64,000 bases of DNA from an uncultured archaeon (GCA_964458565.1 CAYWJO010000001.1:191160-255159), one strand, 5' to 3'; numbered from the stretch's first letter, positions 45,109-64,000 are shown. Numbers and translations: made by a program. Notes: generated by a model from the sequence alone, not told the origin.

Positions 45109-45879
45109 ATGTCTAATTCAATTGACATCAAAACCGAGAGTCTTACCAAACTGTTTGGTAATATACAAGCACTTCTGGATTTGAATCTTGAAGTTCGGCG
45201 AGGTAGTGTGTTTGGATATCTTGGACCGAATGGTGCGGGTAAAACTACTACAGTCAGAATTCTATCGGGGCTTTTACGTCCGACTAGGGGGAATGCGAGT
45301 GTATGTGGGTATGATATTCACACACAGCGCGATGAGATAAAAGCAATTACTGGCCTTCTCCCAGAAGCTCCTGGATTGTACTCAAAATTATCTGCTGTTG
45401 AGTTTTTGGAGTTCATTGGTGCATTGAATGACCTATCGGGTGAGGTAGTTCATAGGCGTATTGATAATTTGCTAGACCTTCTGGGGCTTGAGGGGCGTCA
45501 AAATGACCTTTTGGAATCATACAGTTCTGGAATGAAACAGAAAGTTCTCATTGCAGCAACTATCATTCATGAACCACGACTCGTTTTTCTTGATGAACCA
45601 ACGTCACGCTTGGACCCAGCAGCTAGCGCTCTTGTAAAAGAGATAATCCTTGCCTTAGCCAGTGAAACTGATACAACGTTTTTCATCTGTACTCACATGA
45701 CGGATTTTGCAGAGGATGTCTGCGAGGTCATAGGAATACTCAATGAGGGCGTTTTGACCACACTTGGCGCTCCAAATGATATTGTGAATAATTTAGGTGC
45801 AAAAGACTTGGAAGATGCATATCTCAAGATTGTTGGCGGGGAAGTAGACCGAGAGAAGCTACTGAGTTGGAGGGAGTGA
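45109..45879 (+). CDS. ABC transporter ATP-binding protein
   Basis: GPNGAGKTT, YSSGMKQK, FLDEPTSRLDP. Confidence 0.92.
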   Translation: MSNSIDIKTESLTKLFGNIQALLDLNLEVRRGSVFGYLGPNGAGKTTTVRILSGLLRPTRGNASVCGYDIHTQRDEIKAITGLLPEAPGLYSKLSAVEFLEFIGALNDLSGEVVHRRIDNLLDLLGLEGRQNDLLESYSSGMKQKVLIAATIIHEPRLVFLDEPTSRLDPAASALVKEIILALASETDTTFFICTHMTDFAEDVCEVIGILNEGVLTTLGAPNDIVNNLGAKDLEDAYLKIVGGEVDREKLLSWRE

Positions 45880-45880
45880 T

Positions 45881-47539: not shown

Positions 47540-47555
47540 ATGCTATCCGACAGAA

Positions 47556-47595
47556 GTAGAAAATGAAAAAGTGTCTTACAAGGGATGATGATTTC
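47556..47595 (-). repeat. possible highly degenerate copy of the 23S trailer end
   Basis: gtagaaaatgaaaaagtgtcttacaagggatgatgatttc resembles gtaggaaaagaaaatagtctgcagggaatgatgatttttc at 54.74 kb. Confidence 0.35.
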
Positions 47596-47681
47596 CGGGG
47601 ATACATTATTTGTAGTGATTCTTATAAAATCCATATTTCTAGTACAACATATATGGAGGGACAGCAAATAGTTAGAGTGGA

Positions 47682-48650
47682 ATGACAAGTATTATTGAAA
47701 CTACAAACTTGACCAAGATCTTTGGTCACAAGCTCATCGCTGTTAACAACCTGAGCTTGGAAGTAGAGGAAGGTTCAGTTTACGGTTTCCTTGGTCCAAA
47801 TGGAGCGGGAAAAACGACCACGATAAGATTAGTGTTAGGTTTGATAAGACCCACTGCAGGGGAGGTTACAGTCTTTGGAGAGAGGATGCTCCCCAGTTCA
47901 TCTGAACTGCGTAGAAGAATTGGATATCTGCCAACAAATCCAAAACTACCACCGAAGATGACTCCTATAATGTATCTTGATTTTGTAGGAAAATTATTTG
48001 CGCAAAATAAGGACCAACGAACATCGAGGCTGTCAAAACTAATACGATCAGTCGATTTGCTACCCAGTGCTTCAAGAGAGATTAAGGGATTCTCAACTGG
48101 AATGGTAACTCGTCTTGGGCTTGCTGCAGCACTAATGAACGACCCTGATCTACTCATTCTCGATGAACCAACATCAGGTTTAGACCCAACAGGAAGAAAA
48201 TCAACATTAGATTTGATTGAAGAGCTTGATAACAAGACGATATTCGTATCATCTCACATTCTTAGCGATATTGAGAGGATATGCACCCATGTTGGAGTAG
48301 TGAATGAAGGCAAGCTGATCTATTCGGGTCCAATAAAAGAAATGAAGAAGCAGATTCAGAGAAACAGAATCAGATTGGAATTGGATGGTAATTTGGACGA
48401 TTTCTGTGAGAAGTTGAAATCTATTAATTATGTTATGGATGTTGAGAGAAGAGGAGACTTCACAATTGACATTACCTTTGATTCCCAAATCTCAACAATA
48501 ATTGGATTAAAGCAGGTAATTGAGTTACTGTCGGAAACTGAAATAGAGTTGATATCAATCAACTCATCAACGTCACGAATTGAAGATGCATTTTTAGCAT
48601 TACTTGAGGAGGAAGAGTCGCGTGGGTTCCTTAGAGCAGTCGAAGATTAG
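47682..48650 (+). CDS. ABC-2 transporter ATP-binding protein
   Basis: GPNGAGKTT, FSTGM, ILDEPT, SSHIL. Confidence 0.92.
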   Translation: MTSIIETTNLTKIFGHKLIAVNNLSLEVEEGSVYGFLGPNGAGKTTTIRLVLGLIRPTAGEVTVFGERMLPSSSELRRRIGYLPTNPKLPPKMTPIMYLDFVGKLFAQNKDQRTSRLSKLIRSVDLLPSASREIKGFSTGMVTRLGLAAALMNDPDLLILDEPTSGLDPTGRKSTLDLIEELDNKTIFVSSHILSDIERICTHVGVVNEGKLIYSGPIKEMKKQIQRNRIRLELDGNLDDFCEKLKSINYVMDVERRGDFTIDITFDSQISTIIGLKQVIELLSETEIELISINSSTSRIEDAFLALLEEEESRGFLRAVED

Positions 48651-49365
48651 AAGAACTATAATGCCATTTCTAGCCATATTTCAGGCTGATTTAGAGGCAT
48701 TACTAAAATCAAGGATAACATATGGCTGGTTGATAGCGGGAGTATTCCTTCAGGTCATTAGAGTTCTGAGTAACTCCCGAATCACTCCCACATCAGTGAT
48801 CATCCCACTTGGTCTCAATGACTTCATAATCATATGGAGTATGTTGATTATTGGTACAACAGCAAGCACAGTTTCATCAGAAACAGGTGAGCTTGCAGAC
48901 TCTATAATGAGTAAATCTGTAAAGAGACAGGATTACATCTTTGCAAAGTTCGCCTCTAGAATTGTGTATGTAGCCATAATGTATCTGGCAATAACATTGG
49001 TCCTGGTAATAGCATCATTGAGATTAGCTGAGAATGATTATGACATCTATGGATTAGTCGCTGCTATTTTATTCGTGCTGATTGCACTCATCATGTTGAC
49101 ATCTCTTGGTGTTTCACTCAGTACTTTTATTTCAAACTCTGTTATTGCCATAGTGACTCTACTCATTCTTTGGTATTCGATGACTGCCTTCTTTCCATTA
49201 TTAGATATGGAGTTATTATCTCCAAGTAATCTAATTGCTAAGATGCCAGATCTCATACAAGGCGATTGGACAGGTGATAGCTGGATCACTGCGGTAATCT
49301 TTGGATACATCTCAGTTGTCTTCACATTTCTCACTGCTTCCTATTTCACAACCAAGGACCTTTAG
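48604..49365 (+). CDS. ABC-2 transporter permease
   Basis: 6 TM; E.GEL..IMSKSVKR...AKF; ATG at 48661 is the likely start. Confidence 0.85.
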   Translation: MRRKSRVGSLEQSKIRRTIMPFLAIFQADLEALLKSRITYGWLIAGVFLQVIRVLSNSRITPTSVIIPLGLNDFIIIWSMLIIGTTASTVSSETGELADSIMSKSVKRQDYIFAKFASRIVYVAIMYLAITLVLVIASLRLAENDYDIYGLVAAILFVLIALIMLTSLGVSLSTFISNSVIAIVTLLILWYSMTAFFPLLDMELLSPSNLIAKMPDLIQGDWTGDSWITAVIFGYISVVFTFLTASYFTTKDL

Positions 49366-49469
49366 GACTGGGAAGTGGCATTTCAGGTCCATTGTGACAA
49401 TATAGTGAAGGGGAGATTGCTAAGTCCCAATCTATCAGAGACATTGCTATTTTTCTGATGATTGCATAA

Positions 49470-49775
49470 TCATAATGGAGAAGACAGAGAATTGTATCTA
49501 TCAAATCGAATGCGTAGGATATTGTATTTTCTGAAAGATAGATACAAAAGTACTGCACCAACCATCCCGATACATATAAGAATTAGGATACCCAATGGAG
49601 AATCGTATAGAGTAAGAAATGTGATGTATGTCATATAACTTGCGAAGATTAAGATGACCAGCGAGATAATTACTTCTAGAGAGGAAATCTGCTCCTCTTC
49701 ATGACCGCTCTCATCACCATTAATTTGAGCACTCACCATAATGTTCCCTATGTTTCTCGTAATGGAAGTTTCCAA
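49470..49775 (-). CDS. small 2-TM protein
   Basis: two hydrophobic helices; starts just past repeat 49817. Confidence 0.5.
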   Translation of the reverse strand: METSITRNIGNIMVSAQINGDESGHEEEQISSLEVIISLVILIFASYMTYITFLTLYDSPLGILILICIGMVGAVLLYLSFRKYNILRIRFDRYNSLSSPL

Positions 49776-49816
49776 ATTAAATTCATCTAAGGTCCATCAA
49801 AAATCAAAAACAAGAA

Positions 49817-49879
49817 ATAGTCCACAGAGGATGATGATTTTCTCAGACACTCGCGTTCTCATGCATACTCTAACAACTC
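49817..49879 (-). repeat. 23S trailer repeat copy 1
   Basis: atagtccacagaggatgatgattttctcagacactcgcgttctcatgcatactctaacaactc aligns with 63797-63863. Confidence 0.9.
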
Positions 49880-49938
49880 CACGAATCTATTTTCTAATCG
49901 AGCGATGTATTTATTCAGACTGGTGTTGAATATCTCAT

Positions 49939-50283
49939 GTGGAAATCAAGACAGTCAGATGCAATTGGTGCGGAAAACCCGAAACAGAATGGAATACCAA
50001 AATTCGCTGGAAAAGCAGAGGATATAGATACTGCTCAGCTAGATGCTTTGCCGCTGCAGAATATCAAGCTCATATTGCTATGGCAATTTGTTCAATTCCA
50101 ATTCTCTCGTTACTTGCAGTTAATCTTGTATTCATCCTACTGTCGGATCAGTCTTTGTTCTATCTTGTAGTAGAAATATGGGTCGTGGGTATTATATTCA
50201 CATATGCAGGAAGTTGTATGTACATGATTTCTCTTGGAAAAAACGAACGACAAGAGAAAGAGAGAGATTCTTCCTTATTGTAG
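49939..50283 (+). CDS. small protein with treble-clef-like Zn motif and two TMs
   Basis: CNWCGK...YRYCSARC; stop codon lies in repeat copy 2. Confidence 0.65.
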   Translation: MEIKTVRCNWCGKPETEWNTKIRWKSRGYRYCSARCFAAAEYQAHIAMAICSIPILSLLAVNLVFILLSDQSLFYLVVEIWVVGIIFTYAGSCMYMISLGKNERQEKERDSSLL

Positions 50284-50330
50284 AAAATTAGTAAAGACAG
50301 TCCTCAGAGGATGAGATGTTTTTCTCGCGT
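50277..50330 (-). repeat. 23S trailer repeat copy 2 (degenerate)
   Basis: attgtagaaaattagtaaagacagtcctcagaggatgagatgtttttctc vs attgtagaaaataaagatagtccacagatgatgatgacttttctc at 63781. Confidence 0.8.
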
Positions 50331-50346
50331 CAAATGAAACGATATT

Positions 50347-50631
50347 TTATGCTAGCCACTCCTCCGGACCTTGTTCACTCTCGATTCGTTTGTGGAACAG
50401 GTATTGATCAACACCTGCAAGCGCGATTAAAATCATGAGTAGAAATGGATATACTTTAACAATTGTTCCAATCAACCCCATTGATAGATATGCGATGTAT
50501 GCATCTACTAATAAGAGCAGTACAACAATTATTATTGAAGCCACGTGGCTTTTCCTTCTAATAACAAGATACAGAATAGCTAAGAGTATAAGTAATGAAT
50601 GAAGTGGTGCAAGTGTCGTTATTATAGTCAT
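50347..50631 (-). CDS. small 3-TM protein downstream of the zinc protease
   Basis: hydrophobic 94-aa ORF with GAGGA upstream. Confidence 0.65.
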   Translation of the reverse strand: MTIITTLAPLHSLLILLAILYLVIRRKSHVASIIIVVLLLLVDAYIAYLSMGLIGTIVKVYPFLLMILIALAGVDQYLFHKRIESEQGPEEWLA

Positions 50632-50670
50632 TTTAATTCCTCAAGTAGAGGGGTATTTCTACCCCTCATA

Positions 50671-51584
50671 TCATCTAGAGTGCTTGAATAAGTTTGGACC
50701 CATCACATCTTGGTTATTTTGGCACAGAGTACTGGAATATGGGAAAGGTGCATTATAAAATAAGGCTTGATAATCCATGATATCAAATGAGTAAAGAGTA
50801 TCGGAAACATCATAGTTGTGACATATCTCGTGAGCAACTGCCGTCCAAGCTCCGAGGTATCCCCAGATAGGATAGAACCCCCAACTCCACCCCGAATCCT
50901 GATGAAGCGTAGAGCCCCACATTGCACAGCTGGTAGTGCGAACGAGGACGATATTTCCCTTAATCCAAGCACATCCTGCATAATCTGTAGGAGTCAAATC
51001 TGTATCACCAGTAAACATCACAAGAATATCATGATATGAGCCATGAGCATCGAAATCCTCTCCTAATTTATTCTCATGACGACCATAATTCGTCCAGTCT
51101 CCTGATACTTGATGAGTCCACCACCATTGATAAGCCCAATATAAACAGTAAGAGGTGAAATCATCACCCTGATACGAATACAACGGGTCATTGTATGGTA
51201 GACCCTGATTATCTCTTGGACCATTTGCATCATAGTTCTTCCAAGTCCAATCCCAACTGAAGATAATATCCTTGTTTGGCCAGTATTGGTCTTCAAAATA
51301 GTTCAAGGCATCAACAATATCCTCACACACTTCATCAAAGTCCATGAAATATAATCGTCCATCTTCAAAGTCATCCTTTGCAGCTTTATCATACATGAAC
51401 CATAAGTCAACATATCGTGTAATGGTTCGTGTTTCATCTTCCTGAAATGACTAATCAATTTCTTCCTCAACCTGTTGAAAGATGCTATTGATAGTATCAA
51501 TATCAACAGAAGGTGATTGAATAGCAGGGGGAGGTAGTCTATGATATATGGAAACTAGTATGAGCTGTTCATAGCTAAAGAAAA
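50671..51584 (-). pseudogene. zincin metalloprotease, 5'-truncated with an in-frame TAG
   Basis: AHEICHNY...DIMDY in 50671-51396; frame stays open upstream except TAG at 51451-51453 and reaches repeat copy 3 without an ATG. Confidence 0.6.
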
Positions 51585-51622
51585 ATAGTCCACAGATGAT
51601 GACAACTCCACTCTGACATGCG
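51585..51622 (-). repeat. 23S trailer repeat copy 3
   Basis: atagtccacagatgatgacaactccactctgacatgcg vs atagtccacagatgatgatgacttttctctgacacgtgcg. Confidence 0.8.
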
Positions 51623-51940
51623 TAACTACGCGCTAATATTCATGCTTGTATGCATGATAATGCATAATAATTACAAATGGATAAAACATAAAAAGGTACA
51701 TGGGATAAATATATGATGATCTTTCAAGTCACTACACGTATTCTCTTAAATGTAATCTAACCTGGAGAATAAATTTGTTCAATGAGTAGATGTATTATCA
51801 TCTAGAAGAGTTTCGTGATAATGAAGTGTATATTCAACACACTCTTTCGAATTCATGGGGAGAAGATAACTATTTATAACAATATATCGCCTCTACCGAA
51901 CAAGACTACTATATTATGTGAGGTTTTCATGGAATGAGGG

Positions 51941-52858
51941 ATGATAACGTCAGTCATTGAGGTATATAACCTGTATAAATCATTCAACGGAGTTCAGGCA
52001 CTCAATGGCCTCAATTTGAAGATTGGTGAAGGTGTCTTTGGTTTTATAGGTCCTAATGGCGCTGGAAAGACAACACTCCTTCGCATCCTTCTGGGTCTAA
52101 TCACACCAGACTCTGGGAATGCAAAAGTACTTGGATTTGATATTCAGGGACAGTCTTTGGAGATACGGAAGAGCATTGGTATCCTTCACGAACGAACAAC
52201 ATTCCCTGAACAGATCACACCACTCCATTATCTGAGAAATGCTATCAGGCTCTATGGAAGTAGCAAAGATCCCGAAAAGCTCATTGCAAGCGTAAATCTG
52301 ACAAAACAAAAGAATCAGAAGATAAAGGGGCTCTCTGCAGGCATGAAGCAGAGGCTTGGTCTGGCTCAATCACTTGCAGGAAATCCACGTCTGATCATCC
52401 TTGATGAACCTACATCAAATCTAGACGTGGCAAGTCGTGATGAGGTCATAGACATCATCTTCAATCTTCACACCACAGAACGCATATCATTCTTTGTAGC
52501 ATCACATATCCTGTCAGAGCTCGAACGAATCTGTCACAATGTTGGTTTCATCAACGAAGGAGTGCTATTAGAACAAGGTTCTGTGCGGGACATAATAACC
52601 AAACATACATCGAATCTACTTAAGGTCAATACTCCGGAGCCAACCTTGGTATCGCAACATGTTACTGGCATCTCAGGAATTGTTGGGACACGCATCACAG
52701 GTTCAAGCCAAGTCGTTGTCCGAGTTGAACCCTCGATGAAGGCTGAGAGCAAGAAACAGATTCAGGAAATCCTCAAGAACGACAATATTCCCTTCTATGG
52801 GATATCAGAAGATGTTGGGTCGCTGGAGGATGCGTTTCGAGATATAATGAGGGGTTAG
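51941..52858 (+). CDS. ABC-2 transporter ATP-binding protein, paralogue of 59280-60203
   Basis: GPNGAGKTT, LSAGMKQR, ILDEPTSNLDV, SHILSE. Confidence 0.92.
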   Translation: MITSVIEVYNLYKSFNGVQALNGLNLKIGEGVFGFIGPNGAGKTTLLRILLGLITPDSGNAKVLGFDIQGQSLEIRKSIGILHERTTFPEQITPLHYLRNAIRLYGSSKDPEKLIASVNLTKQKNQKIKGLSAGMKQRLGLAQSLAGNPRLIILDEPTSNLDVASRDEVIDIIFNLHTTERISFFVASHILSELERICHNVGFINEGVLLEQGSVRDIITKHTSNLLKVNTPEPTLVSQHVTGISGIVGTRITGSSQVVVRVEPSMKAESKKQIQEILKNDNIPFYGISEDVGSLEDAFRDIMRG

Positions 52859-52861
52859 ATA

Positions 52862-53656
52862 ATGAGGAAGAATCTGCGTGCTATCATTGCGATAGAGTTT
52901 GAGAATATGGCATACTTTCCAATCCTAGAGGGAATCATCTGCTTACTTGTGTTCTTTTGTTTTTCAGCACTCACGGCAAGTTTCGCACAGGACTTCGAAA
53001 TAATCACAGGGAGTGTGTATAATGGAACAACAATAGAAACTGATATTCTTGAAGACATCCAGAGGTTAAATATTCAACAAGCAGTAAACCCATTGCAGGC
53101 CCTCTCAGTTGCTTACTTCTTCTTTGTTCCATTGTTGAGTACTCTAACGATCACAAGACCTATTGAGGATGGGACTCTTAGGGCCTATCTCTCATTCCCA
53201 GTATCCAGATCATCCATTCTCATGGTCAAGTTCCTCCTGGTCAATCTGATTCTCTGGGTGACATCCACAGGTAGCTGGATAATGGTGGTTGCACTCTTAT
53301 TACCTGGCTATCAGCAGTATCTAAGTTTGATAGTCTGGAGTCTTGTACTCCTTCTCAACTGCATGGTGATAACATCCACCTGTTTTTTGATTTCGATGCT
53401 ATCAAAACAGAGTGGAACATCGCTGTTCATAGGGTTGGGATTGTGGTATGTTCTCACAGTGTTGGCATCCAGTTATAACACTCCAATTCAACTCAGGGGT
53501 CTTTTCTTTCCTGCTATTATAGTCTGGTTATCGGTACAATATGGGTCCTCCTATGTGTTAACAGGTGAGCTCATTCTACCAATTCTTGGAGCGATTGCCA
53601 TAGTCATACTTGCCTACTCTGCGTGTCACATCGTATTTAAGAAAATGGAGGTTTAA
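52862..53656 (+). CDS. ABC-2 permease, paralogue of 60724-61527
   Basis: EDGTLRAYLSFPVSR; 6 TM. Confidence 0.85.
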   Translation: MRKNLRAIIAIEFENMAYFPILEGIICLLVFFCFSALTASFAQDFEIITGSVYNGTTIETDILEDIQRLNIQQAVNPLQALSVAYFFFVPLLSTLTITRPIEDGTLRAYLSFPVSRSSILMVKFLLVNLILWVTSTGSWIMVVALLLPGYQQYLSLIVWSLVLLLNCMVITSTCFLISMLSKQSGTSLFIGLGLWYVLTVLASSYNTPIQLRGLFFPAIIVWLSVQYGSSYVLTGELILPILGAIAIVILAYSACHIVFKKMEV

Positions 53657-53659
53657 CAG

Positions 53660-54142
53660 GTGAGAATTGGAAGAGCATTGATCTTGATTGGAATTGTGAT
53701 GATTGCCGCTTCCCTTTTGGGAGGGAGTGGGAGGGGTGGAGGTGTCAATGTAAGATATGGTGAGTGTGGGGGGCAGGTATTCAAAGCATATGGAAATGTA
53801 GTAGTGGAGGCAGAGGAGTTCTATAACCGATCATTCTCGATATACATTCTCACGTGGTCGAGCTTTCAATACATCCTTGAGAATGGAAGCCTTGAAGATG
53901 TTGATCCTGTTGCTATTTTTGAGAAAGTTGATGGATCTGTTGAAACTATCGTTGAGTTATCAGGAACGGGTATCTATGCCATTTTGTTCACGCCATACTT
54001 TGATGAAATAATACTCATCGATTTTCAAGTCATTCAAGCCACACCAAGAACAGGAATATTACTACCTGGGATTGGCGTCGTGATGATTGGGATTGTCGTG
54101 GTAGTATTGTCAGTACTATCAAAATGGAGGTATAGTAGATAA
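53660..54142 (+). CDS. 2-TM accessory protein with extracellular domain, paralogue of 60207-60722
   Basis: N.SFS(I/V)YIL, G.Y.I and Q..PR shared with 60207. Confidence 0.7.
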   Translation: MRIGRALILIGIVMIAASLLGGSGRGGGVNVRYGECGGQVFKAYGNVVVEAEEFYNRSFSIYILTWSSFQYILENGSLEDVDPVAIFEKVDGSVETIVELSGTGIYAILFTPYFDEIILIDFQVIQATPRTGILLPGIGVVMIGIVVVVLSVLSKWRYSR

Positions 54143-54317
54143 TAAGACCATTATTACTCTTTAGCATCCTTGAAATTAAATCTTGAGAAATTCCTGCTGT
54201 AATCATAATCCTTCTTTCGATGATAAGATAAAAAATAAAAGCTGGGCACTCTTTTTATTTACTCTCATTTGATAGATGGATTATAATCACTCCTAATGAG
54301 GGTAGGAGAATATTGTA

Positions 54318-54755
54318 ATGATGAATGTAAAGAGGCTAGTACCAATGTTAGGCTTCGTGCTATTCATGGGCTTTTTGCCAGCTCTAGCACAAGGCACTAC
54401 GGTTTCTGATCATTATGACGAAAAGGATACAGATTTTATTGGTGATGGATGGTACTATCATTCTGTCAGTAAGGTTACTGGCAATATCAAGCTCGACCAT
54501 GGGCAAACCATTGGCAACGCCTATTGTACGATTACATTGAGAGAACAGATTACTACACCGACAGGGGAAGACCATTACTATATCAACATATTTTGTCGTT
54601 ATCGTACATGGTTTCAAATTGCTGGAATGTTTGGTAGTACGTTTGATATGACCGTATCACTTCAATTATTAGATAATGCACTTGGAGTGGATGCTGAAGA
54701 AACAGGGATTACGGAGGATGATGATTATTCTCAAATCTGTAGGAAAAGAAAATAG
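54318..54755 (+). CDS. secreted protein whose C-terminus and stop come from repeat copy 4 (probably truncated)
   Basis: signal peptide ...FLPALAQG; final CRKRK* encoded by tgtaggaaaagaaaatag of the repeat. Confidence 0.65.
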   Translation: MMNVKRLVPMLGFVLFMGFLPALAQGTTVSDHYDEKDTDFIGDGWYYHSVSKVTGNIKLDHGQTIGNAYCTITLREQITTPTGEDHYYINIFCRYRTWFQIAGMFGSTFDMTVSLQLLDNALGVDAEETGITEDDDYSQICRKRK

Positions 54756-54878
54756 TCTGCAGGGAATGATGATTTTTCTCAGACACTCGCGTTCTCACAT
54801 TATACTCCAGCAACTCTAGGTACTGTGCGAGCCACACTTTTAGTCTGCACGCCTCGGACATTAGTAGCGGTGAGCTGA
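54738..54878 (-). repeat. 23S 3' end plus trailer repeat copy 4
   Basis: 54810-54878 is identical over 69 nt to 63857-63925, including the terminal 23S sequence. Confidence 0.97.
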
Positions 54879-55128
54879 GGATTATAACTTCCAATATTAA
54901 TGATGATTAGCGGTAAGATCAATAAAAATGGAGAATTGAGTAACTAATTCGTCAAGACAATACTATTGCTATTTATACAAAAGAAGGAACAACATTAGAT
55001 GCCCTATCAATAATTGCATCTCACATGTATAATAGAGCAATAATCTATCTTTAAATGATATAAAATACTAAGAATAATGAGTCTTCACATCAATACAACT
55101 TAAATTGTTAATTGGAGCTTATTGAAAA

Positions 55129-57903
55129 GTGAACAGAAGTCGTAATGCAATTGCATTTATAGTTCTAATAATCATGCTATATTCTGTTGACAGTTTTCAT
55201 ATCATTCAATCAAACTCGAGAAGTCACGCACCTCTTATAATTAGCAGAGATTCGTTTAGTTTGTTCATACAAAATATGGGTCAGATTAAAACACCTAATA
55301 CAAAATATTATGCATATACTGATGATGGAATGATTACATTTACAAATGATAGTGTAGTATTCTATCAAAGATTCACGAATAATACAGCCATATTAAATTT
55401 AGATTTATTGAAATGTGGACCCGTTGGAATTGATGAAATTACTAGAAATATCGGATATTTCATAAACTCAAATGAGAATTACACTGGATGCAAGGCATAT
55501 AGATACATAATATATCCTCTGCCATCCTCTGAAGAAGTTCTACTTTTTTTCATGTCCTCAGAAGGATTGCATCACGAATTCTTGGATACAGCTAATATTA
55601 GAGCCAAAATTCAAACTTCTAACGCAAATCGAGATACCGCATCTGCAAATATTCAACAAACTTCACTAGCGAAGGACATAGCCTTATTCGAATCAAAATT
55701 GCATAATTTCAGCATCTCGGAGTCTTCTACAAATAACTATCTTATCTCCTCCTCATTGTTTGGTGGGGGTAATGAAGACATCGGAGAAGATGTCACAGTT
55801 GATGCATATGGCGATATCTATATAACTGGAAAAACGGAATCGATTGATTTTCCTGCCTATAATGGAATAGATTATGATAATAACGGACCTTCAGATTGTT
55901 TTGTAATAAAGATGAACTCAACTGGAAACGGATTGATATTTGCTACATACATAGGTGGTTCATCAGCAGATGGAGGATATACTATCGATGTGGATGCTTT
56001 TGGTTGCGTGTATATTGGAGGAGTTACAAACTCTCCTGATTTTCCCATACGGAATTCCTTTGATTCATCATATAATGGAGATCTTGATTGTTTTATATTG
56101 AAGCTAAATGCATCTGGTAATGAGATTTTATTTTCTACATATCTTGGAGGAACTGATTATGATAGACTTGCTGAAATTACATTAGATTCAAATCAAAATA
56201 TCATTGCTACAGGTCTTACTAGCTCAAACGATTTTCCATTGATTAATGAATCAAACAATACATATTCTGGAAATGGGGATTGTTTTATCACGCAATTATC
56301 ATTCAATGGTACATCTTTATTATACTCAGGAATGTTTGGCGGATCTGAAGTTGATACTGGTAGTGATTTAGTTATAGATAAAAATGGTACAATTTATGTA
56401 ACAGGTACTACGCGTTCATCTGATTTTCCAGTTTTAAACGCCATAGATATCTCACTAAGTGGTTACAGTGATGCGTTCATTGTTGTCATAGATGAATTTC
56501 AAGCACTTGAGTTTTCCACTTATTATGGAGGAAATTCGTATGAGAGTGGTACATCTCTAGCCTTTGATTTAGAGGGATCTGTAATCATAGCTGGAGAAAC
56601 GAAATCTTCTGATTTCCCATTATTGAATCCGTTTGACGATACATTGGACAATGATGAATATGATGGATTTGTAGCGAAATTGAATTTGAATGATATGAAT
56701 CTGATTTATTCATCATATATTGGTGGTTCAGGGATAGATAGTGTTGAATCTATACTCTTAGATGCTGCATCCAATATATATATCGTAGGAACCACATCAT
56801 CCTCTGATTTTCAGTCATCATCGTCTTTTGATGATACATTCAATGGCATAAATGATGGATTTCTCATGAAATTATCTTCCAATGGAAGTAATTTGTTATA
56901 TTCGACATTCATCGGGGGCTCAGGGGGGGATTCGTGTAGTTCTATGTCGTTTGGAGATTCTGGATCCATATGGGTCACAGGCAGCACATGGTCTGAAGAC
57001 TTCCTAACAGCAAATTCATCTTTCGATGAATACCGGGGTGGAACCTCAGATTGTTTTCTACTTGGGATACGAGATACAACGGATTCTGACGGGGACCTCC
57101 TCCCTGATTGGTGGGAGTGTGAATATCAATTGAATATGTACTACAACGACTCTAAGGAAGATTCAGATGATGACAATTTAACGAATCTTGATGAGTTTAT
57201 TATAGGTACAAATCCCTTATACAATGACTCGGATTTTGATTGGATGCCAGACGGATGGGAGTATCTTTATGGGCTTGATGTTCTCAAAGATGACTCAGGA
57301 GATGATCCTGATGATGATGGCCTAACAAATTATATGGAATATGTACATAATACAATGCCGTTCATTAATGATACGGACTCTGATTTGATACCTGATGGAT
57401 GGGAAGTCCTGCATGGGCTCAATCCTTTACTGAACGACTCATACAATGATCCTGATGATGACAACTTATCAAACCTTAATGAATTCTATCTAGGCACACT
57501 TCCTCTGAATGATGACTCCGACTTTGACCAAATGCCGGACGGATGGGAATATAACATTGGATTAAATCCATTGATGCAAGATGCGTATGGTGATCCTGAT
57601 TCTGACTTGCTTTCAAACCTCTTGGAATATAATCATGGCACTAATCCATTTATCTCGGACACTGATTTTGATGGGATGAGTGATAAATGGGAGGTGGAGC
57701 TCGGATTCGACCCGATAGATCCCAATTTTACAATCTATCAGTATCTTGTGTATAATATTGTCGGAATCATTTTCATTGTTACAATTGGATTTGACCTGCT
57801 CCTCGCTAGATATCTATTGTTAGCCTTCAATAAATCTGATAAGAAAAAGCATGAAGCCCTTGTGAGAAAAGAAATGCACATTTTGTTGGAAGAAGATAGA
57901 TAA
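55129..57903 (+). CDS. membrane-anchored surface protein with SBBP beta-propeller repeats and Asp-rich Ca-binding repeats
   Basis: about seven repeats of YIGG...D....I..D..G.IY.TG.T.S.DFP; DSDxDx(L/M)PDGWE...GLNP repeats; N- and C-terminal hydrophobic helices. Confidence 0.88.
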   Translation: MNRSRNAIAFIVLIIMLYSVDSFHIIQSNSRSHAPLIISRDSFSLFIQNMGQIKTPNTKYYAYTDDGMITFTNDSVVFYQRFTNNTAILNLDLLKCGPVGIDEITRNIGYFINSNENYTGCKAYRYIIYPLPSSEEVLLFFMSSEGLHHEFLDTANIRAKIQTSNANRDTASANIQQTSLAKDIALFESKLHNFSISESSTNNYLISSSLFGGGNEDIGEDVTVDAYGDIYITGKTESIDFPAYNGIDYDNNGPSDCFVIKMNSTGNGLIFATYIGGSSADGGYTIDVDAFGCVYIGGVTNSPDFPIRNSFDSSYNGDLDCFILKLNASGNEILFSTYLGGTDYDRLAEITLDSNQNIIATGLTSSNDFPLINESNNTYSGNGDCFITQLSFNGTSLLYSGMFGGSEVDTGSDLVIDKNGTIYVTGTTRSSDFPVLNAIDISLSGYSDAFIVVIDEFQALEFSTYYGGNSYESGTSLAFDLEGSVIIAGETKSSDFPLLNPFDDTLDNDEYDGFVAKLNLNDMNLIYSSYIGGSGIDSVESILLDAASNIYIVGTTSSSDFQSSSSFDDTFNGINDGFLMKLSSNGSNLLYSTFIGGSGGDSCSSMSFGDSGSIWVTGSTWSEDFLTANSSFDEYRGGTSDCFLLGIRDTTDSDGDLLPDWWECEYQLNMYYNDSKEDSDDDNLTNLDEFIIGTNPLYNDSDFDWMPDGWEYLYGLDVLKDDSGDDPDDDGLTNYMEYVHNTMPFINDTDSDLIPDGWEVLHGLNPLLNDSYNDPDDDNLSNLNEFYLGTLPLNDDSDFDQMPDGWEYNIGLNPLMQDAYGDPDSDLLSNLLEYNHGTNPFISDTDFDGMSDKWEVELGFDPIDPNFTIYQYLVYNIVGIIFIVTIGFDLLLARYLLLAFNKSDKKKHEALVRKEMHILLEEDR

Positions 57904-58007
57904 CTATTACTATAAATTTGCATCATCTTAGCATTCTTTCGCCGCTTTTTCTAATTCGGACTTTAAATTCAATCTCGGGAACTAAATCACATTATAGGAA
58001 GATAAAG

Positions 58008-58385
58008 ATGAAGGAATACAGGAAAACATCAACTCTATTAACTGCAGTCACGTTATTTTTGCTATTTATTACAACGAATCAATTAATGGTCTTAGCAAAT
58101 GAAGACCCTAGTGATACAGGTGTTCAAAAATGGATGGAAATTAATCATCTACATGGATTGGGATATAAAGGAGATGGTGTTACAATAGCCATTATCGACA
58201 CAGGATGTATCTATCATGATGATCTTAATAGTACCTACGAAACCGAACTCACCCAATATTGTGAGGTAGATAGTGAGGGTTCAATCAGTCGGACAACATT
58301 ATGGTCTAGTCCAATTGTTGGAGAGAGTACTAACGAAACAATACAAGGTACTGTGCGAGCCATGCTTTTAGTCTGTATGCCTTAG
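58008..58385 (+). pseudogene. subtilisin-like (S8) peptidase, truncated by repeat copy 5
   Basis: signal-like N-terminus; GYKGDGVTIAIIDTG catalytic-Asp motif; no His or Ser motifs; last 13 codons are repeat-derived. Confidence 0.8.
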
Positions 58386-58424
58386 ACATTAGTAATGATA
58401 AGGTAAATACCTCGCCAAAGCTTG
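58346..58424 (-). repeat. 23S 3' end plus partial trailer repeat copy 5
   Basis: aggtactgtgcgagccatgcttttagtctgtatgccttagacattagt...aatacctcgccaaagcttg aligns with 63865-63943. Confidence 0.92.
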
Positions 58425-58485
58425 ATTTATTTGGATAGTAGCAAATAATAAAATTGAAGACGATATTGATACTACTAAAGAGAAT

Positions 58486-58800
58486 GTGATTAAAATGACC
58501 TCTGCAATCGATATTCCATCAAAGGAAATTCTATCGGAATTTTGCGGAAGGCATCATATCCGTAAACTCTCGATTTTTGGCTCAGCCCTAAGGGACGACT
58601 TTGGTCCTGAGAGTGATATAGACATCCTAATTGAGTTTGAAACAGGATATACACCTGGATTCTTTGGGTTCATTGAGATTCAGGATGAGTTATCCGAACT
58701 TTTTGGAAACAAGGTTGACTTACGGACACCTTCAGATCTTAGTAAATACTTTCGGGAGAGAGTACTAAAGGAAGCTGAGGTTCAGTATATTGCAAGATGA
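58486..58800 (+). CDS. mntA: MNT (minimal nucleotidyltransferase) antitoxin
   Basis: IFGSALRDDF...SDIDILIEF, L..LFG.KVDL. Confidence 0.9.
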   Translation: MIKMTSAIDIPSKEILSEFCGRHHIRKLSIFGSALRDDFGPESDIDILIEFETGYTPGFFGFIEIQDELSELFGNKVDLRTPSDLSKYFRERVLKEAEVQYIAR

Positions 58801-59146
58801 TATTATACGTCTTCAACATATGTTGGATGCTGTAAACGAGATTTTAGAATTCACCGATGGTAAATCACGATCTGACTTGGATGATATACGAGTGCTTGCT
58901 CTTGCCCTTGTCAAATTACTTGAAATCATAGGTGAAGCAGCATCAGGGATTTCGAAAGTAACCAAAGATGAACATCCTGAACTACCTTGGAAACAAATGA
59001 TTGGAATGAGAAACCGTCTAATTCATGGATATTTCGATATAGACCTAGATATTGTTTGGCAAACTGTTGATATGGATTTACCACCTCTCAAGATTAAATT
59101 GGAGAGCATTCTTCGACAGGTTGAAAATTCCGTAAAACAAGAATAG
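58790..59146 (+). CDS. hepT: HepT/DUF86 HEPN ribonuclease toxin
   Basis: LEIIGEAA, PWKQMIGMRNRLIHGYF (RX4HXY); overlaps mntA; stop lies in repeat copy 6. Confidence 0.9.
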   Translation: MQDDIIRLQHMLDAVNEILEFTDGKSRSDLDDIRVLALALVKLLEIIGEAASGISKVTKDEHPELPWKQMIGMRNRLIHGYFDIDLDIVWQTVDMDLPPLKIKLESILRQVENSVKQE

Positions 59147-59255
59147 TCCACAGAGGATGATGTTTTCTCAGACGTTTGCGTTCTTAACTATACTCCAGCA
59201 ACTCTAGGTACTGTGCGAGCCACACTTTTAGTCTGCACGTTTCGATAATAATAGC
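59143..59255 (-). repeat. 23S 3' end plus trailer repeat copy 6
   Basis: 59198-59239 is identical over 42 nt to 63857-63898, then degenerate tcgataataatagcgatgaattga. Confidence 0.95.
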
Positions 59256-59279
59256 GATGAATTGATCTGGAACTTTGAT

Positions 59280-60203
59280 TCACACCGTTTTATCGGATAT
59301 TATAGACTTGTAGGTTTCATCAAGTGTATCAGCTACTTCAAAAGCATAAATACACAAACCAAATTCTTCAGCTATTTGCCTAATCATCTCTTTAGTATCG
59401 TTACATGTTGCAGGTTCTATTTTAAGAGTTACAGTATTAATCCCAGAAATGGTTGCTCTGATAACAGTTGGTATGTCTTGAACAACCTCGAGGAGCTTTC
59501 TTGAATCTGAAGTAACAATTCTAAAACTTGATTCAGTATACTTTTTGATTATTTCACGAGTTTCTCCGACCTCAATAATCCTGCCCCGATTTATGAAACC
59601 TACATGATTACATGCTCTTTCGATTTCTGACAGAATATGTGAGGAGATATAGAAGGACATCCCTTCGTCTTGATGTAGGTTAATAATAAGCTGAATCAAA
59701 TCCTCACGACCATCCACATCAAGGTTTGATGTGGGTTCATCTAGAAACACAACCTCAGGATTTCCGATTATAGCCTGAGCAATTCCCAGCCGCTGATACA
59801 TTCCCGCAGAAAGATTACCAATTGTCCTATTTCGTGCATAATGTAAATCAACATTTTTAAGTACTTTATCAGGATTACTTGTACTTCCATAAAGATTCGC
59901 AATTCGTGTAAGATATTTGAAAGGTGTCATATTTGTAGGAAAATATGGTTTTTCATGAAGTATACCCACACGACTACGAATGGCTAACGTTTGGTTGTTG
60001 ATGTCAAAACCCAGAATCATCCCCGTCCCAGCATCGGGTTTTATAAGATTGAATAAAATACGCAATAATGTTGTCTTTCCTGCTCCATTAGGTCCTATTA
60101 GTCCAAAAATCCCCTTTTTGACATCAAAGCTGATTCCATCAAGAGCAACTACTTCATTGAAACGTTTTTTTATAGATGAAATAGAAATAACAGGTTCGTT
60201 CAT
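59280..60203 (-). CDS. ABC-2 transporter ATP-binding protein
   Basis: GPNGAGKTT, LSAGMYQR, FLDEPTSNLDV. Confidence 0.92.
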   Translation of the reverse strand: MNEPVISISSIKKRFNEVVALDGISFDVKKGIFGLIGPNGAGKTTLLRILFNLIKPDAGTGMILGFDINNQTLAIRSRVGILHEKPYFPTNMTPFKYLTRIANLYGSTSNPDKVLKNVDLHYARNRTIGNLSAGMYQRLGIAQAIIGNPEVVFLDEPTSNLDVDGREDLIQLIINLHQDEGMSFYISSHILSEIERACNHVGFINRGRIIEVGETREIIKKYTESSFRIVTSDSRKLLEVVQDIPTVIRATISGINTVTLKIEPATCNDTKEMIRQIAEEFGLCIYAFEVADTLDETYKSIISDKTV

Positions 60204-60206
60204 TTT

Positions 60207-60722
60207 TTATTCCACATCCATCACGTTTACTTCGCCTAATTCAGAAGTGAGTCGAAATTTATTCTGCAAAACATAAAGAGGTATACTAATTGACAATAGA
60301 ACAATACTTGATACATAATATGTTATCCTAGGAATGACCTGAGCAATACGATATCTGACACTAATAGAATAGTTCATGTCTGTTGTTATGACGATACCAT
60401 ACCATCCTGAATGAGGTGTTTTTAATATCATCTGAATTTGTGTTACATTTGCAGTAACAAAAAATGGAGATGTGCCATTAAGCGATTTATTTGATAAAAT
60501 ATGATAAGAGTCAACCTCGGAAAGAATATACACCGAGAATGATTCATTGATTCTTGACTCCATATGCAGAGAAACACCATCGTTAATAAACAGAAACCTA
60601 ACTGTATAGTTGTTCTTTGTAACCTGCATACTGCTTCCACGAGAACTAGTAGGTAATATGGATACGATAAGAAGTGTAACTCCAATCAGCAGGAAGAATT
60701 TAGTAATACGCACCTGAATCAC
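60207..60722 (-). CDS. 2-TM accessory protein with extracellular domain
   Basis: N- and C-terminal hydrophobic helices, several NxS/T sequons; similar to 53660. Confidence 0.7.
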   Translation of the reverse strand: MIQVRITKFFLLIGVTLLIVSILPTSSRGSSMQVTKNNYTVRFLFINDGVSLHMESRINESFSVYILSEVDSYHILSNKSLNGTSPFFVTANVTQIQMILKTPHSGWYGIVITTDMNYSISVRYRIAQVIPRITYYVSSIVLLSISIPLYVLQNKFRLTSELGEVNVMDVE

Positions 60723-60723
60723 C

Positions 60724-61527
60724 TCAATTTATTTCCACTTGACGAAAAACCAGCAAGCTACTAATTATCATGATTATCGTAATCAGAAAGAGAATGCAAT
60801 ATGAACCAATTATATCTCCTACAACGAAATCCGTGCTATAAGGAGAAAGGAAAGAACTCATAGCAAGAAGAGGATTTGATAAAGCTCTAATAATTTTAGG
60901 AAGCTCATACATATTGAAAATCCATTGAGGAAAAAGAAACCAAATTAACATACCAGTAAAAGCAGTAGTTATTGATTTTCTTGAAATGCAAGCAATAAGA
61001 ATACAGACTGATACAATTACAGAAACGTATATCCAAATGCCAATTATTACTAGAACTATAAAAGAAAAATGTAAACTACTCCAGAAGCTCACAAGACTTC
61101 CTATTATAAAAAATGATGTTAGAGTAACGCCAATAGGTATCACAACAAGAAATAATCTTGAAAATAGGAGAGTTTGTCGACTGATTGGATATGAAAGAAG
61201 AGTACGAAATGAGCCATCATCAAAACTTTGAGCGAATGTAAATGCAATGAGAAGTGGAACAATCAGAGCAATCATAGAAGCAATTGAATATGTATACATC
61301 TGAGTAACAGAATATAATGTCATCTCTAGATCTTCTGAGTTCTCTAGGGCTATTTGTGTTGTATTTAGAGGAAATTCAGTTGTATAGGAGGCAGAAACAA
61401 GAGGATTGAGGAATAAGAAAGGGATAAGAGATACGAATACGAAAATAATAGTGATGATCTCATGTATTGGATATCTAAACGTACTATCATTTTCAAGATG
61501 AATTATATCACTTAGCTTTGCACTCAA
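60724..61527 (-). CDS. ABC-2 permease
   Basis: DDGSFRTLLSYPISR; 6 TM. Confidence 0.85.
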   Translation of the reverse strand: MSAKLSDIIHLENDSTFRYPIHEIITIIFVFVSLIPFLFLNPLVSASYTTEFPLNTTQIALENSEDLEMTLYSVTQMYTYSIASMIALIVPLLIAFTFAQSFDDGSFRTLLSYPISRQTLLFSRLFLVVIPIGVTLTSFFIIGSLVSFWSSLHFSFIVLVIIGIWIYVSVIVSVCILIACISRKSITTAFTGMLIWFLFPQWIFNMYELPKIIRALSNPLLAMSSFLSPYSTDFVVGDIIGSYCILFLITIIMIISSLLVFRQVEIN

Positions 61528-61721
61528 TTCTCACAAGCTCCTATTCAAATTTAAATTACTATATAGATGTTAAAACTTTCTAGTAAAGGATTTTGGTTTT
61601 CAAATCTTGTTCATGATTAAAGTCCATCTGTTTAGTTGAATTGCCCGCGAGTGTGAAACTTCAAATTATGGTAATATATATATGTATGTTTGATTAAAGT
61701 AGTATTTAGGAGTTTGAAGAT

Positions 61722-62366
61722 ATGACTATGATGAGTGCATATCAGAAAAGATGGGTTTTCTTAATCATTTTACTAACAATGGTGGTAAATGTATCATATA
61801 TACCATTAAGTATACATACTCCAGTAATAGAGAGAGTCTTTAATGTAAGTGGTTCTCAATCAGGAACCTTTGATTACACAGATGATTCCACTGGAGCCAT
61901 ATGGTGGTTATCATATGTAGATGACAGTGGTCTAATGAAAATGTGTGGTGATTCTCATTATCCTAATTGGTTTGGAAGTTATAGTAGACTTACTGTTGGT
62001 TCCCTTGTCACTGTTAACGAGCCATTGAAGGTGAGAATAGGATTTTATGCTACCCTTAATGCAAAGATACTTGAAGGATTTCCTGGAACTGTATGGATAA
62101 AGGTATTTGTAACACTTCTTGATGAATCGTACAATCAGATTGATTACAAACGTCTTCTTTTCAAAGAAACAGATTGGACAGGATCAGTTGATTTTACAGG
62201 GTATAAGCACAAACTTGATTCTGAGACCACTCTTCAGCCAAATCATAATTATTATCTTTGTGTTAAATGGGAGGGCTATCTACAATGTACAGGGTATGTA
62301 CATGCAACTGATGGTACAGGTTATGCAGACCTAATAATTTCGCAAATATTGTGGTCGTTCTATTAA
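61722..62366 (+). CDS. secreted/anchored protein of unknown family, paralogue 1
   Basis: N-terminal hydrophobic helix; KVRIG..., LLDESYNQID, ETTLQPNHNYYLCV. Confidence 0.75.
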   Translation: MTMMSAYQKRWVFLIILLTMVVNVSYIPLSIHTPVIERVFNVSGSQSGTFDYTDDSTGAIWWLSYVDDSGLMKMCGDSHYPNWFGSYSRLTVGSLVTVNEPLKVRIGFYATLNAKILEGFPGTVWIKVFVTLLDESYNQIDYKRLLFKETDWTGSVDFTGYKHKLDSETTLQPNHNYYLCVKWEGYLQCTGYVHATDGTGYADLIISQILWSFY

Positions 62367-62399
62367 TCATTTATTGATATGGCTTGGCGGTGAATATAC

Positions 62400-63047
62400 T
62401 TGATACACAAGAAAACAGAATTAGTAATCATAACTCTCATTTCCCTGTGTTTAATATTTCCAATTCCTAGCAATAATGTGAGTCTACCGAATCACTCATA
62501 CCTGCCAGCATTTGAATGGGATAATGCACCTTGGGACAAGACTGTGATACAGGAACAACCATTTTGGTGGGATTTGAGAGTTTATGATCAATATAAAATG
62601 TATATGAGAGGTGTTTCAAACCCACTTAATCTACTCGGAAGCAAATCGTTTATCTACTTTGGATTTGAGGTCCAAGTTGATACAGCTAAGAAAGTCAAAA
62701 TTGGAGCATATGGTTTGTTGAATGCTTTTATAATCTCAGGAACTCCAGGCAGTGTTTGGATTAAGATATCAGCAGTTTTGTGTGATGAAACCATGAATCC
62801 AATAGATCAGCATCAACTCTTCAAACGTTCAAGAGCAAATGGTGCAAATTGGACAGGACGAAATGTAGTAATTAATGATGATTTTGACGTGTATAAACTG
62901 GACTATGAAACAACTTTGCAGCCAGGGCATAAGTACTATGTATGTGTTCGATTAGAAGGATGGTTGTGTTATTGGAGTCAGATATATGGAATAAATAATA
63001 ATTTTGCACAGTTTCATGTGTCCTGCATAATGTGGGAGTTTTATTAA
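62400..63047 (+). CDS. secreted/anchored protein of unknown family, paralogue 2
   Basis: KVKIG..., LCDETMNPID, ETTLQPGHKYYVCV. Confidence 0.75.
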   Translation: MIHKKTELVIITLISLCLIFPIPSNNVSLPNHSYLPAFEWDNAPWDKTVIQEQPFWWDLRVYDQYKMYMRGVSNPLNLLGSKSFIYFGFEVQVDTAKKVKIGAYGLLNAFIISGTPGSVWIKISAVLCDETMNPIDQHQLFKRSRANGANWTGRNVVINDDFDVYKLDYETTLQPGHKYYVCVRLEGWLCYWSQIYGINNNFAQFHVSCIMWEFY

Positions 63048-63141
63048 GTTGCAATAAGCAATGCAAAATTAAATTCCTCATGATATTGGTCTAGTTTAAT
63101 AAATTTTGAACACTTAGTGATAAGGAGGTGTTACATATTAG

Positions 63142-63741
63142 ATGGAAAGATTGGGTACAAAGATCAAAGCTGTGTTGGTATTAGCAGGATTATGTTTCAG
63201 TTTATGGACTTTATGTGAATTACTAGCACCAAGGGTTATATCAGTCGATGTTTATAATGAGAACCGAGGAGTATTCATTATTTCAAATGTGAATCAAACA
63301 TCAAAAGAGATATCAATCGAGGGGCATCATGATCTCTTCACGTTACCAAGAGCTTGTTATGCTCAATACATAAGTGATTTTCCGCCTCCACATCAAGGTA
63401 AGGTTAGATTTGAAGTTGAATGGAATCTAACGGGAAAAATTATTGCTGGAAAACTAAGTGAAGCTAGTGTAGTGGTTTCGGTTTTGCTGTTGGATACAAC
63501 TAAGAATACGTTGGATATGAATCAGATTTATAGCATAAACGTATATTCTGATACCTTAGAAATTAGCATTCATAATTCGAATACTGGTTACTTCAAGTAC
63601 AACACTACAGTATATCCTCAATTTCTATATTATCTCGCAATTCGACTTCATGTTACTCTCTCTGGAGCATCATCATTCACCAGTATCGATGGAGATATTC
63701 CTGCAATTCTTACAGTACAAAGTATTGAGGGTTTTTTGTAG
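63142..63741 (+). CDS. secreted/anchored protein of unknown family, divergent paralogue 3
   Basis: AGGAGGTG upstream; KVRF..., LLDTTKNTLD, NTTVYPQFLYYLAI. Confidence 0.7.
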   Translation: MERLGTKIKAVLVLAGLCFSLWTLCELLAPRVISVDVYNENRGVFIISNVNQTSKEISIEGHHDLFTLPRACYAQYISDFPPPHQGKVRFEVEWNLTGKIIAGKLSEASVVVSVLLLDTTKNTLDMNQIYSINVYSDTLEISIHNSNTGYFKYNTTVYPQFLYYLAIRLHVTLSGASSFTSIDGDIPAILTVQSIEGFL

Positions 63742-63780
63742 AATATGAATACATGAATATTGCCCTGAAAAATAATCTCC

Positions 63781-63890
63781 ATTGTAGAAAATAAAGATAG
63801 TCCACAGATGATGATGACTTTTCTCTGACACGTGCGTTCTCACTCATATACTCCTGGCAACTCTAGGTACTGTGCGAGCCACACTTTTAG
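63781..63890 (-). other. 23S rRNA 3' trailer ending in a T-rich terminator-like tract; master copy of the repeat
   Basis: directly follows the 23S end; minus strand ends ...gtggactatctttattttctacaat. Confidence 0.75.
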
Positions 63891-64000
63891 TCTGCACGCC
63901 TCGGACATTAGTAGCGGTGAGCTGAATACCTCGCCGAAGCTTGGTACTTACACCCCCGCCCTATTCACCTTGTCTTCTACAAGAGTCCTCGTTTCCAGAC
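63891..64000 (-). rRNA. rrl: 23S rRNA, 3'-terminal ~110 nt (gene continues beyond the window; exact end approximate)
   Basis: minus strand GGACTCTTGTAGAAGACAAGGTGAATAGGGCGGGGGTGTAAG...TTCAGCTCACCGCTACTAATGTCCGAG fits the conserved archaeal LSU 3' end (GTAGAAGAC...ATAGG..GGGGTGTAAG...TTCAGC...TACTAA). Confidence 0.9.

Follow-up and report, generated by a model that had tools for sequence, protein, structure and literature searches.

Cassette arrays bounded by displaced rRNA trailers behind the 23S rRNA gene of Thorarchaeota

Islands at stable-RNA genes and the Thorarchaeota locus

Tandem genomic islands at the 3' ends of tRNA and tmRNA genes are integrase-mediated insertions, as expressed in the "Islander" principle and as seen in the tycheposon arrays of Prochlorococcus. 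Here we describe an array of comparable layout in a 64,000-nt window from a Thorarchaeota (Asgard) metagenome-assembled genome (MAG), G000 (GCA_964458565.1, CAYWJO010000001.1:191160-255159; this contig is C1 below, and coordinates given without a contig name are positions in the window). It appears to be an accretion array, in which cassettes of accessory genes have collected behind a single 23S rRNA gene and each cassette is bounded by a co-oriented copy of the last 23S bases and the trailer that follows them. We consider it probable, if well short of certain, that cassettes are gained and shuffled when homologous recombination of the Campbell type takes place in the rRNA tail and the former tail is displaced. 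The resemblance to the tRNA and tmRNA islands is close: the 3' end of a stable-RNA gene is targeted, the gene end is rebuilt at each insertion as a partial copy is shifted downstream, and serial insertions leave co-oriented partial copies with cargo between them and the newest insertion beside the gene. The differences are that the target here is the 23S end with its processing-stem trailer and not a tRNA, that no integrase is found in the cassettes, in the flank or, in the case of the related genome G012, in the whole genome, and that the copies begin on the left anywhere between -59 and +67 relative to the 23S end, whereas an attP would fix the repeat length.

The nearest published analogue that we found is the HVR2 region of SAR11. 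HVR2 is a fast-changing island of surface and transport genes beside a single 23S gene, and the rRNA genes have been proposed as its sites of homologous recombination; it lies between the 23S and 5S genes, has no attC and is thought to be replaced whole by a double crossover (PMC2217521). The island found here is likewise variable and lies directly beside the 23S gene between conserved flanks. In contrast to HVR2, its far flank is a protein-coding syntenic block (30221-41091), no second rRNA gene lies in the window, and duplicated rRNA tails divide the island into sections, a structure implying additions by single crossover. A full-text literature search found no published description of rRNA-tail cassette arrays in archaea.

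Homology-facilitated recombination, in which a conserved sequence serves as the anchor, has been described for naturally transformable bacteria. The likeness lies in the conserved sequence, here the rRNA end, that gives foreign DNA the homology to integrate. That process, however, replaces sequence from a linear fragment and does not duplicate its anchor; the duplicated tails of the Thorarchaeota array therefore call for a circular substrate or for unequal exchange.

With integrons the array shares mobile-looking cassettes of one to five genes, toxin-antitoxin pairs among them, that are stacked at one site with a recurring repeat between them, and it also shares the capacity to become very large (at least 31 BLAST segments in G012 match that genome's own trailer). 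It differs from integrons in that no IntI-type tyrosine recombinase adjoins the array, the genes lie on both strands rather than co-oriented under one promoter, and the repeat is a working part of the rRNA precursor. The attC site is an imperfect palindrome that folds as single-stranded DNA, whereas the repeats here do not form hairpins: when the trailer attached to the gene and two of its displaced copies (c4 and c6, described below) were folded as single-stranded DNA, both strands gave z values of +0.8 to +1.6, that is, less structure than shuffled sequence.

Displaced copies and exchanged trailer alleles

Only the 3' terminus of the 23S gene is present in the window (112 nt, 63889-64000, minus strand; archaeal 23S, Rfam RF02540, model positions 2875-2987, 71.7 bits), because contig C1 stops at base 64000. 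The same Rfam scan of the window detected no other rRNA gene. The junction is prolonged by a metagenome contig, L035, from sample Ga0307426, which adds 1966 nt of 23S. In the G000 MAG, whose contigs break at rRNA and at repeats, a whole-genome search found no complete 16S or 23S gene; the 23S 5' end and leader were mapped by BLAST to the start of contig C26. The trailer now attached to the 23S end, which we call the resident trailer (63776-63888, minus strand), consists of a proximal stem (about 63848-63888), a variable centre (63820-63847), a distal box (63797-63819) and a T-rich tail (63776-63796).

A BLAST comparison of the resident segment with the window identified six further co-oriented partial copies of the 23S 3' end and trailer between 49807 and 59260, all on the minus strand. 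We number them c1 to c6, in agreement with a first-pass annotation of this DNA, and we quote motifs in the 23S sense. The copy nearest the gene, c6 (59134-59260), spans -31 to +101 relative to the 23S end, c5 (58346-58424) spans -54 to +24 and is 84% identical to the resident copy, and c4 (54738-54878) spans -36 to +106 with an intact 23S part. The remaining three are shorter. Copy c3 (51577-51623) comprises the distal portion only, +52 to +100; c2 (50277-50319; BLAST segment 50277-50314, E=1e-4) comprises a distal box and a tail that resembles the resident tail (TTTTCTACAAT); and c1 (49807-49876; BLAST segment 49807-49867, +41 to +101), the copy most distant from the 23S gene, covers about +35 to +101 and has a c6-like box. 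Identity from copy to copy is 56-93%, and the boundaries differ. Beyond the window, G000 has four more copies, one at C1:13232-13350 and three on contig C64. The former (L034 8233-8351) is a truncated copy of a C64 cassette that lies on the same contig as the 23S end but 240 kb from it, and it carries an intact 43-nt 23S fragment.

The first-pass annotation held that the copies fall into at least two trailer variants, and every shared variant that it listed for them is present in the alignments and motif coordinates. GTCTGAG occurs in c1 (49842-49848), c4 (54778-54784) and c6 (59167-59173), and GTCAGAG in the resident trailer (63823-63829) and c3 (51611-51617). The sequence TTGCTGGAGTAT is common to c4 and c6, where the resident counterpart is TTGCCAGGAGTAT; CATCCTCTGTGG is common to c1 and c6, and CATCATCTGTGG to the resident trailer and c3. 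The alignment contains 25 parsimony-informative columns, against 15.2±2.6 expected from a star phylogeny with uniform sites, and none of 5000 simulations reached 25; when mutation is confined to the observed variable sites, the star model gives 20.8±2.5 informative columns (P=0.064). The four-gamete test is failed by 49 of the 105 biallelic site pairs (47%), which therefore fit no tree, and a PHI-type recombination test was not significant and is uninformative in this alignment (P=0.69). Roughly three groups can be distinguished, one of c6, c4 and c1, one of c3 and the C64 copies C64a and C64b, and the resident trailer, which shares sites with both. The variants are thus real and not star-like, but with so many reticulate site pairs they do not form two clean lineages.

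The evidence for exchange of trailers comes from a near-identical strain. One metagenome scan with a genus-specific pattern returned three contigs. A global alignment of L035 with C1, from the 23S gene through the adjoining cassette A (59261-63775), contains 24 differences in 4184 columns, of which 18 fall in a 48-nt patch of the trailer (63809-63856, minus strand), two in the 23S gene and four across the other approximately 4 kb, so that divergence outside the patch is about 0.1% of positions. Throughout the patch L035 is identical to c6. Its right breakpoint lies within the 11-nt block CTGTGGACTAT, after which cassette A's own tail and genes resume as in G000. A comparison of the copies with the trailers of other strains, the check that the first-pass annotation had proposed, thus gave a match: the c6 trailer is identical to the resident trailer of L035, yet 81% identical to the resident trailer of its own genome. 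The resident allele of L035 is, in other words, the copy displaced 4.6 kb downstream in G000, and cassette A sits behind two trailer alleles in two otherwise 99.9% identical strains. Judged from the aligned sequences, the difference in the trailer patch can only be the result of recombination. Cassette A may have integrated twice, with resolution at a different position each time, or once, with c6 later serving as the donor in a conversion. The strain differences within the 23S gene, at 63957 and 63916 (G/A and C/T, G000 versus L035), lie on opposite strands of the terminal stem and preserve the base pair, a compensatory change between near-identical strains.

Comparison with L035 also bears on how c6 is put together. 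Its 23S part, 21 nt long, differs at seven positions, and the approximately 100 nt that follow match L035 without exception; c6 is a chimera in which a pristine trailer follows decayed 23S sequence. This is the pattern that a single crossover near the 23S end predicts, with old cassette-borne sequence to the left and the former working trailer to the right. Copy c5 is diverged throughout. In both c5 and c6 the 23S changes, mostly GC to AT, affect positions at which 20 family genomes show no variation. These diverged stretches of 23S are accordingly products of decay and not foreign working rRNA alleles, a possibility that the same changes rule out for c5. Other 23S pieces have been kept fresh. 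A pair of two-gene cassettes, at C64:1732-4777 and near 13 kb on C1, share a common junction at -42 and 78% DNA identity, and the 23S pieces beside them are 98-100% identical to the 23S gene; recombination therefore keeps rewriting the copies.

These results set a limit on what can be read from the array. The first-pass annotation proposed that each incoming cassette brought its own trailer and displaced the resident one, so that the array might record donor strains. The displacement itself is retained, since the displaced copies are former resident trailers and an incoming trailer can differ from the one it replaces, as the c6 copy of the L035 allele illustrates. What has to be given up is that each cassette keeps its own trailer, because cassette A carries two alleles, and with it the tidy list of donors: the sites are reticulate, 23S pieces are rewritten and the 23S parts of c5 and c6 are decay products. 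The copies are mosaic as well as rewritten, so the array cannot be read as a donor list and is a blurred record of past insertions.

Role of the trailer, family spread and cargo

The trailers of 20 family genomes have a common architecture, composed of AAAG, a conserved strand (..CTCGCACAGTACCTAGAGTTG), a variable stretch of 20-40 nt, the distal box and a T-rich tail. The distal box, with a consensus of about CCWTCATCCTCTGCAGRCTAT, is the most conserved trailer element across genera. In G012 and G002, where the 23S gene is fully assembled, cofolding predicts near-continuous pairing of the trailer, including the box, with the leader, which carries the exact complement of the box (GCAGAGGATGGAGG). 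Cofolding of the G000 leader on C26 with the G000 trailer gives 69-76 intermolecular pairs in the same manner. By these cofolds and the conservation across 20 genomes, the repeat is the 3' strand of the pre-23S processing helix, which accounts for the similarity of the copies ending at the box and tail.

The predicted binding to the assembled leader differs between trailers. With trailers of equal length, ddG is -40.7 for c4, which is the best partner, -33.5 for c6 and L035, -30.8 for the resident trailer and about -19 for the C64 copies. At the variable site highlighted by the first-pass annotation, GTCTGAG pairs with an A of the leader, whereas the resident GTCAGAG leaves an A·A mismatch, as read from the sequences. 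As supporting evidence, these modelled affinities fit a history in which the displaced copies may have been earlier partners of the leader and the present trailer arrived later.

A further metagenome record, L036 (Ga0316588_1018205), contains at approximately 1361-1526 a 23S 3' end with about 27 nt of trailer (...CACAGTACCTAG) joined directly to a leader (TACTGTGCCGG...) and 23S 5' end. A circular pre-23S RNA would show such a join, as would two genes arranged head to tail, and the record may be RNA or DNA. The truncation point of c5 lies 2 nt short of this circular-pre-23S-like join. Circular 23S transcripts have been reported in Asgard archaea (PMC12918454).

The arrays are widespread in the family. 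The query was matched by 19 of 24 family genomes, and displaced copies were found in all nine Thorarchaeota genomes that were queried with their own trailer (G012, G003, G001, G019, G000, G041, G023, G020 and G024), including the closed genome CP070658.1 (G041), with one matching BLAST segment. As in the window, the copies are co-oriented with the 23S end in G003, G001, G012 and G041. Left boundaries in G012 range from -59 to +33, many G012 copies stop exactly at the box, and two tail types are interspersed there; multiple trailer variants per array are therefore a general feature. Copies can also be far longer than those of the window, since two copies in G019 (L023, G019:C3, 2279-2590 and 10942-11226) each carry at least 111 nt of 23S; a homologous open reading frame (ORF) precedes each of them, and the sequence upstream of the copy at 2279-2590 showed no 23S gene. 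In G003 the 23S gene itself contains a group I intron (L022, G003:C46, 18054-18384; RF00028, 114 bits).

The island on the far side of which the syntenic block lies varies in size. The block is common to G024, G023 and G020, and the interval from the 23S gene to it measures about 8, 9.5, 15 and 20-22 kb in four genomes, with different gene content. G000 has five ABC-2 transporter modules, and others occur in G001 and G012. Whether compared inside one genome or across genomes, the module proteins share 21-52% identity, and one G000 ABC-2 ATPase has its closest relative in a G012 ATPase; the DNA of the accompanying trailers is 74-93% identical. An origin of the array by tandem duplication and later divergence is ruled out, with cassette proteins 21-52% identical against 74-93% for the noncoding tails and with modules that differ in orientation. 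A two-gene cassette common to the G001 and G012 arrays has 74% DNA identity, and the homology is restricted to the coding part.

In the window, cassette A adjoins the resident trailer and is 99.9% identical to L035 outside the trailer (assigned by Pfam; protein clusters 0, 1, 2 and 7). It encodes three secreted paralogues of unassigned family on the plus strand (61722-62366, 62400-63047 and 63142-63741) and, on the minus strand, an ABC-2 module composed of an ATPase (59280-60203), a small protein (60207-60722) and a permease (60724-61527). Between c6 and c5 lies a one-pair toxin-antitoxin cassette (58486-59146, plus strand) with an MNT nucleotidyltransferase (58486-58800, PF01909) and a HepT RNase (58790-59146, PF01934); an MNT homologue, 69% identical in amino acids, adjoins a repeat in the G019 array. 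The propeller cassette (54879-58345, plus strand) encodes a 924-aa secreted protein with SBBP beta-propeller and TSP3 repeats (55129-57903; PF06739, PF18884), and a 155-aa ORF (57918-58385) that extends into c5 and has no Pfam match at E<0.01. Homologues (cluster 4) are found on C64, near 13 kb on C1 and in G012. A second ABC-2 cassette (51941-54755, plus strand; Pfam, clusters 0, 1 and 2) consists of an ATPase (51941-52858), a permease (52862-53656), a small protein (53660-54142) and a 145-aa ORF (54318-54755) that terminates within c4. The orientation of genes relative to the repeats is mixed in the window, in C64 and in G012.

From the syntenic block to c1, at 41687-49800, no tail copy is detectable. 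This segment holds paralogues of core-block genes (45109-47539 versus 32491-34955), whose ATPases are 71-75% identical to the G024 orthologue, and it may be an older, repeat-free portion of the island. Contig C64 (L033) contains four copies of a unit of approximately 130 nt (1-126, 4788-4913, 10376-10501 and 15257-15382), which is also present at the ends of C87 and C32; contig L037, from sample Ga0307444, shows that C87 and C64 adjoin each other. The unit resembles the 5' part of a tRNA-Arg(TCT) gene (minus strand) together with the sequence upstream of it. In two cases it is fused to a 23S-trailer copy, and it represents a second type of displaced stable-RNA fragment within a cassette array.

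How the arrays may have formed

Under the model that we favour, a segment carried by a cassette would recombine with the copy attached to the 23S gene, both when a cassette enters the locus and when it is transferred between strains. A Campbell-type crossover would place the cassette-derived trailer on the rRNA gene and push the former resident trailer downstream. Each displaced copy would then be a mosaic, with old cassette-borne sequence upstream of the crossover and a former working trailer downstream of it. The variants would be trailer alleles circulating in the population, mixed further by later exchange between copies. A circular intermediate, catalysis by the general recombination machinery of the host and the direction in which each transfer took place are inferred.

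Several points weigh against this model. Neither a circular cassette nor an empty site was seen. The left boundaries bunch within approximately 60 nt of the 23S end, and plain homologous recombination predicts no such clustering. What the shortest copies have kept is the distal box, which a site-specific enzyme would fit too. The excess of shared variants is borderline within the alignment alone once rate heterogeneity is allowed (P=0.064). Contig L035 ends 560 nt short of c6, and two integrations of cassette A are therefore indistinguishable from one integration with gene conversion. The leader, on C26, and the 23S 3' end, on C1, are on separate contigs of the MAG and could come from different strains, which weakens the argument from pairing.

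The alternative that survives best is gene conversion among the copies of one genome's own trailer, which would explain the shared variants with no donor trailers at all. As a sufficient account we find it unlikely, but it has real merits. An exact donor for the L035 patch exists in c6, which lies in the same array at a distance of 4.6 kb; next to diverged cassettes, 23S pieces have stayed 98-100% identical; and the pattern of sites is reticulate. Conversion leaves unexplained why cassettes as unrelated as those between the copies (21-52% protein identity, mixed orientation) should be there, and why cassette families recur in the arrays of different genera; the resident allele, moreover, has no exact donor in this MAG. 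The two processes are not mutually exclusive, and conversion and cassette entry can both hold.

A bolder idea, which we regard as doubtful, is that Asgard archaea possess a dedicated cassette system without an integrase of any known family, docking at the outer box of the pre-23S processing helix. If this were true, small circular cassettes would pass from strain to strain and from genus to genus, and the displaced tails would have a function instead of being scars, perhaps in terminating transcription from both directions or in marking cassette transcripts for processing; archaea would then have an equivalent of the integron based on an rRNA maturation signal. In the related integron-like proposal, an unrecognised recombinase acting at the distal box (CCWTCATCCTCTGCAGRCTAT) would insert circular cassettes, with the box as attachment site. 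We think this distinctly improbable. Its appeal is that the box is more conserved across genera than any other trailer element, that it is retained in the shortest copies (c1 to c3) and in G023 (+67 to +132), that many G012 copies stop sharply there, and that the right breakpoint of the L035 patch falls in the 11-nt CTGTGGACTAT. The conservation of the box is, however, already accounted for by its pairing with the leader. The repeat units lack the self-folding of attC (z of +0.8 to +1.6), gene orientation is mixed, and a crossover at the box would leave the 23S sequence unduplicated, yet many copies carry 23S. The enzymes are also missing: searches for tyrosine (PF00589), serine (PF00239) and IS110 (PF01548) recombinases in G000, G012, G001, G019 and G003 found none on array contigs, or linked to any array, and none anywhere in G012. 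PF00589 has one match in G000, on contig C53, which is not an array contig, and none in G012, G001 and G019; by Pfam neither the cassettes of the window nor the syntenic flank encode a recombinase or integrase. Transport by a virus or plasmid was rejected after two IMG/VR pattern scans, one with the 23S end and one with the proximal stem, gave 0 matches.

Independent decay from one sequence, with shared bases arising by chance or at mutational hot spots, is very improbable. It is tolerated by the alignment statistics if only variable sites mutate (P=0.064) and by the PHI-type test, which was not significant. Simulation rejects the star model with uniform sites (0 of 5000 runs), and for the c6/L035 allele decay is already refuted, as point mutation cannot produce a patch with 18 differences in 48 nt, against 4 in approximately 4 kb, that is identical to another copy. 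Hardly credible is an assembly artefact in which alternative strain versions were falsely concatenated behind the 23S gene: the genome is a MAG with contigs broken at rRNA and repeats, but copies that are 56-93% identical with differing boundaries would be neither collapsed nor chained by an assembler, the join of 23S, trailer and cassette A is reproduced in an independent assembly from another sample, and the same structure recurs in eight further MAGs and in one closed genome.

Recombination in the rRNA tail, as the route that we favour for cassette gain, has consequences for how Asgard genomes are read and how they change. The arrays account for the breaks in Asgard MAG contigs that occur behind the 23S gene, and they carry the warning that the order of copies is not to be taken as a simple history. 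The two 99.9%-alike strains that differ by one swapped 48-nt patch provide population-level evidence that tails are being exchanged at present. The rRNA leader may lag behind the changing trailer, and the plasticity of the genome would thereby be linked to rRNA maturation. The debate on the origin of eukaryotic gene content gives gene flow into Asgard archaea a central place, and to our knowledge few integration mechanisms are known for these archaea. An insertion hotspot that relies on the near-universally conserved rRNA end would allow accessory genes, here ABC-2 exporters, secreted propeller proteins and toxin-antitoxin pairs, to be shared among related species without an integrase encoded by the element.

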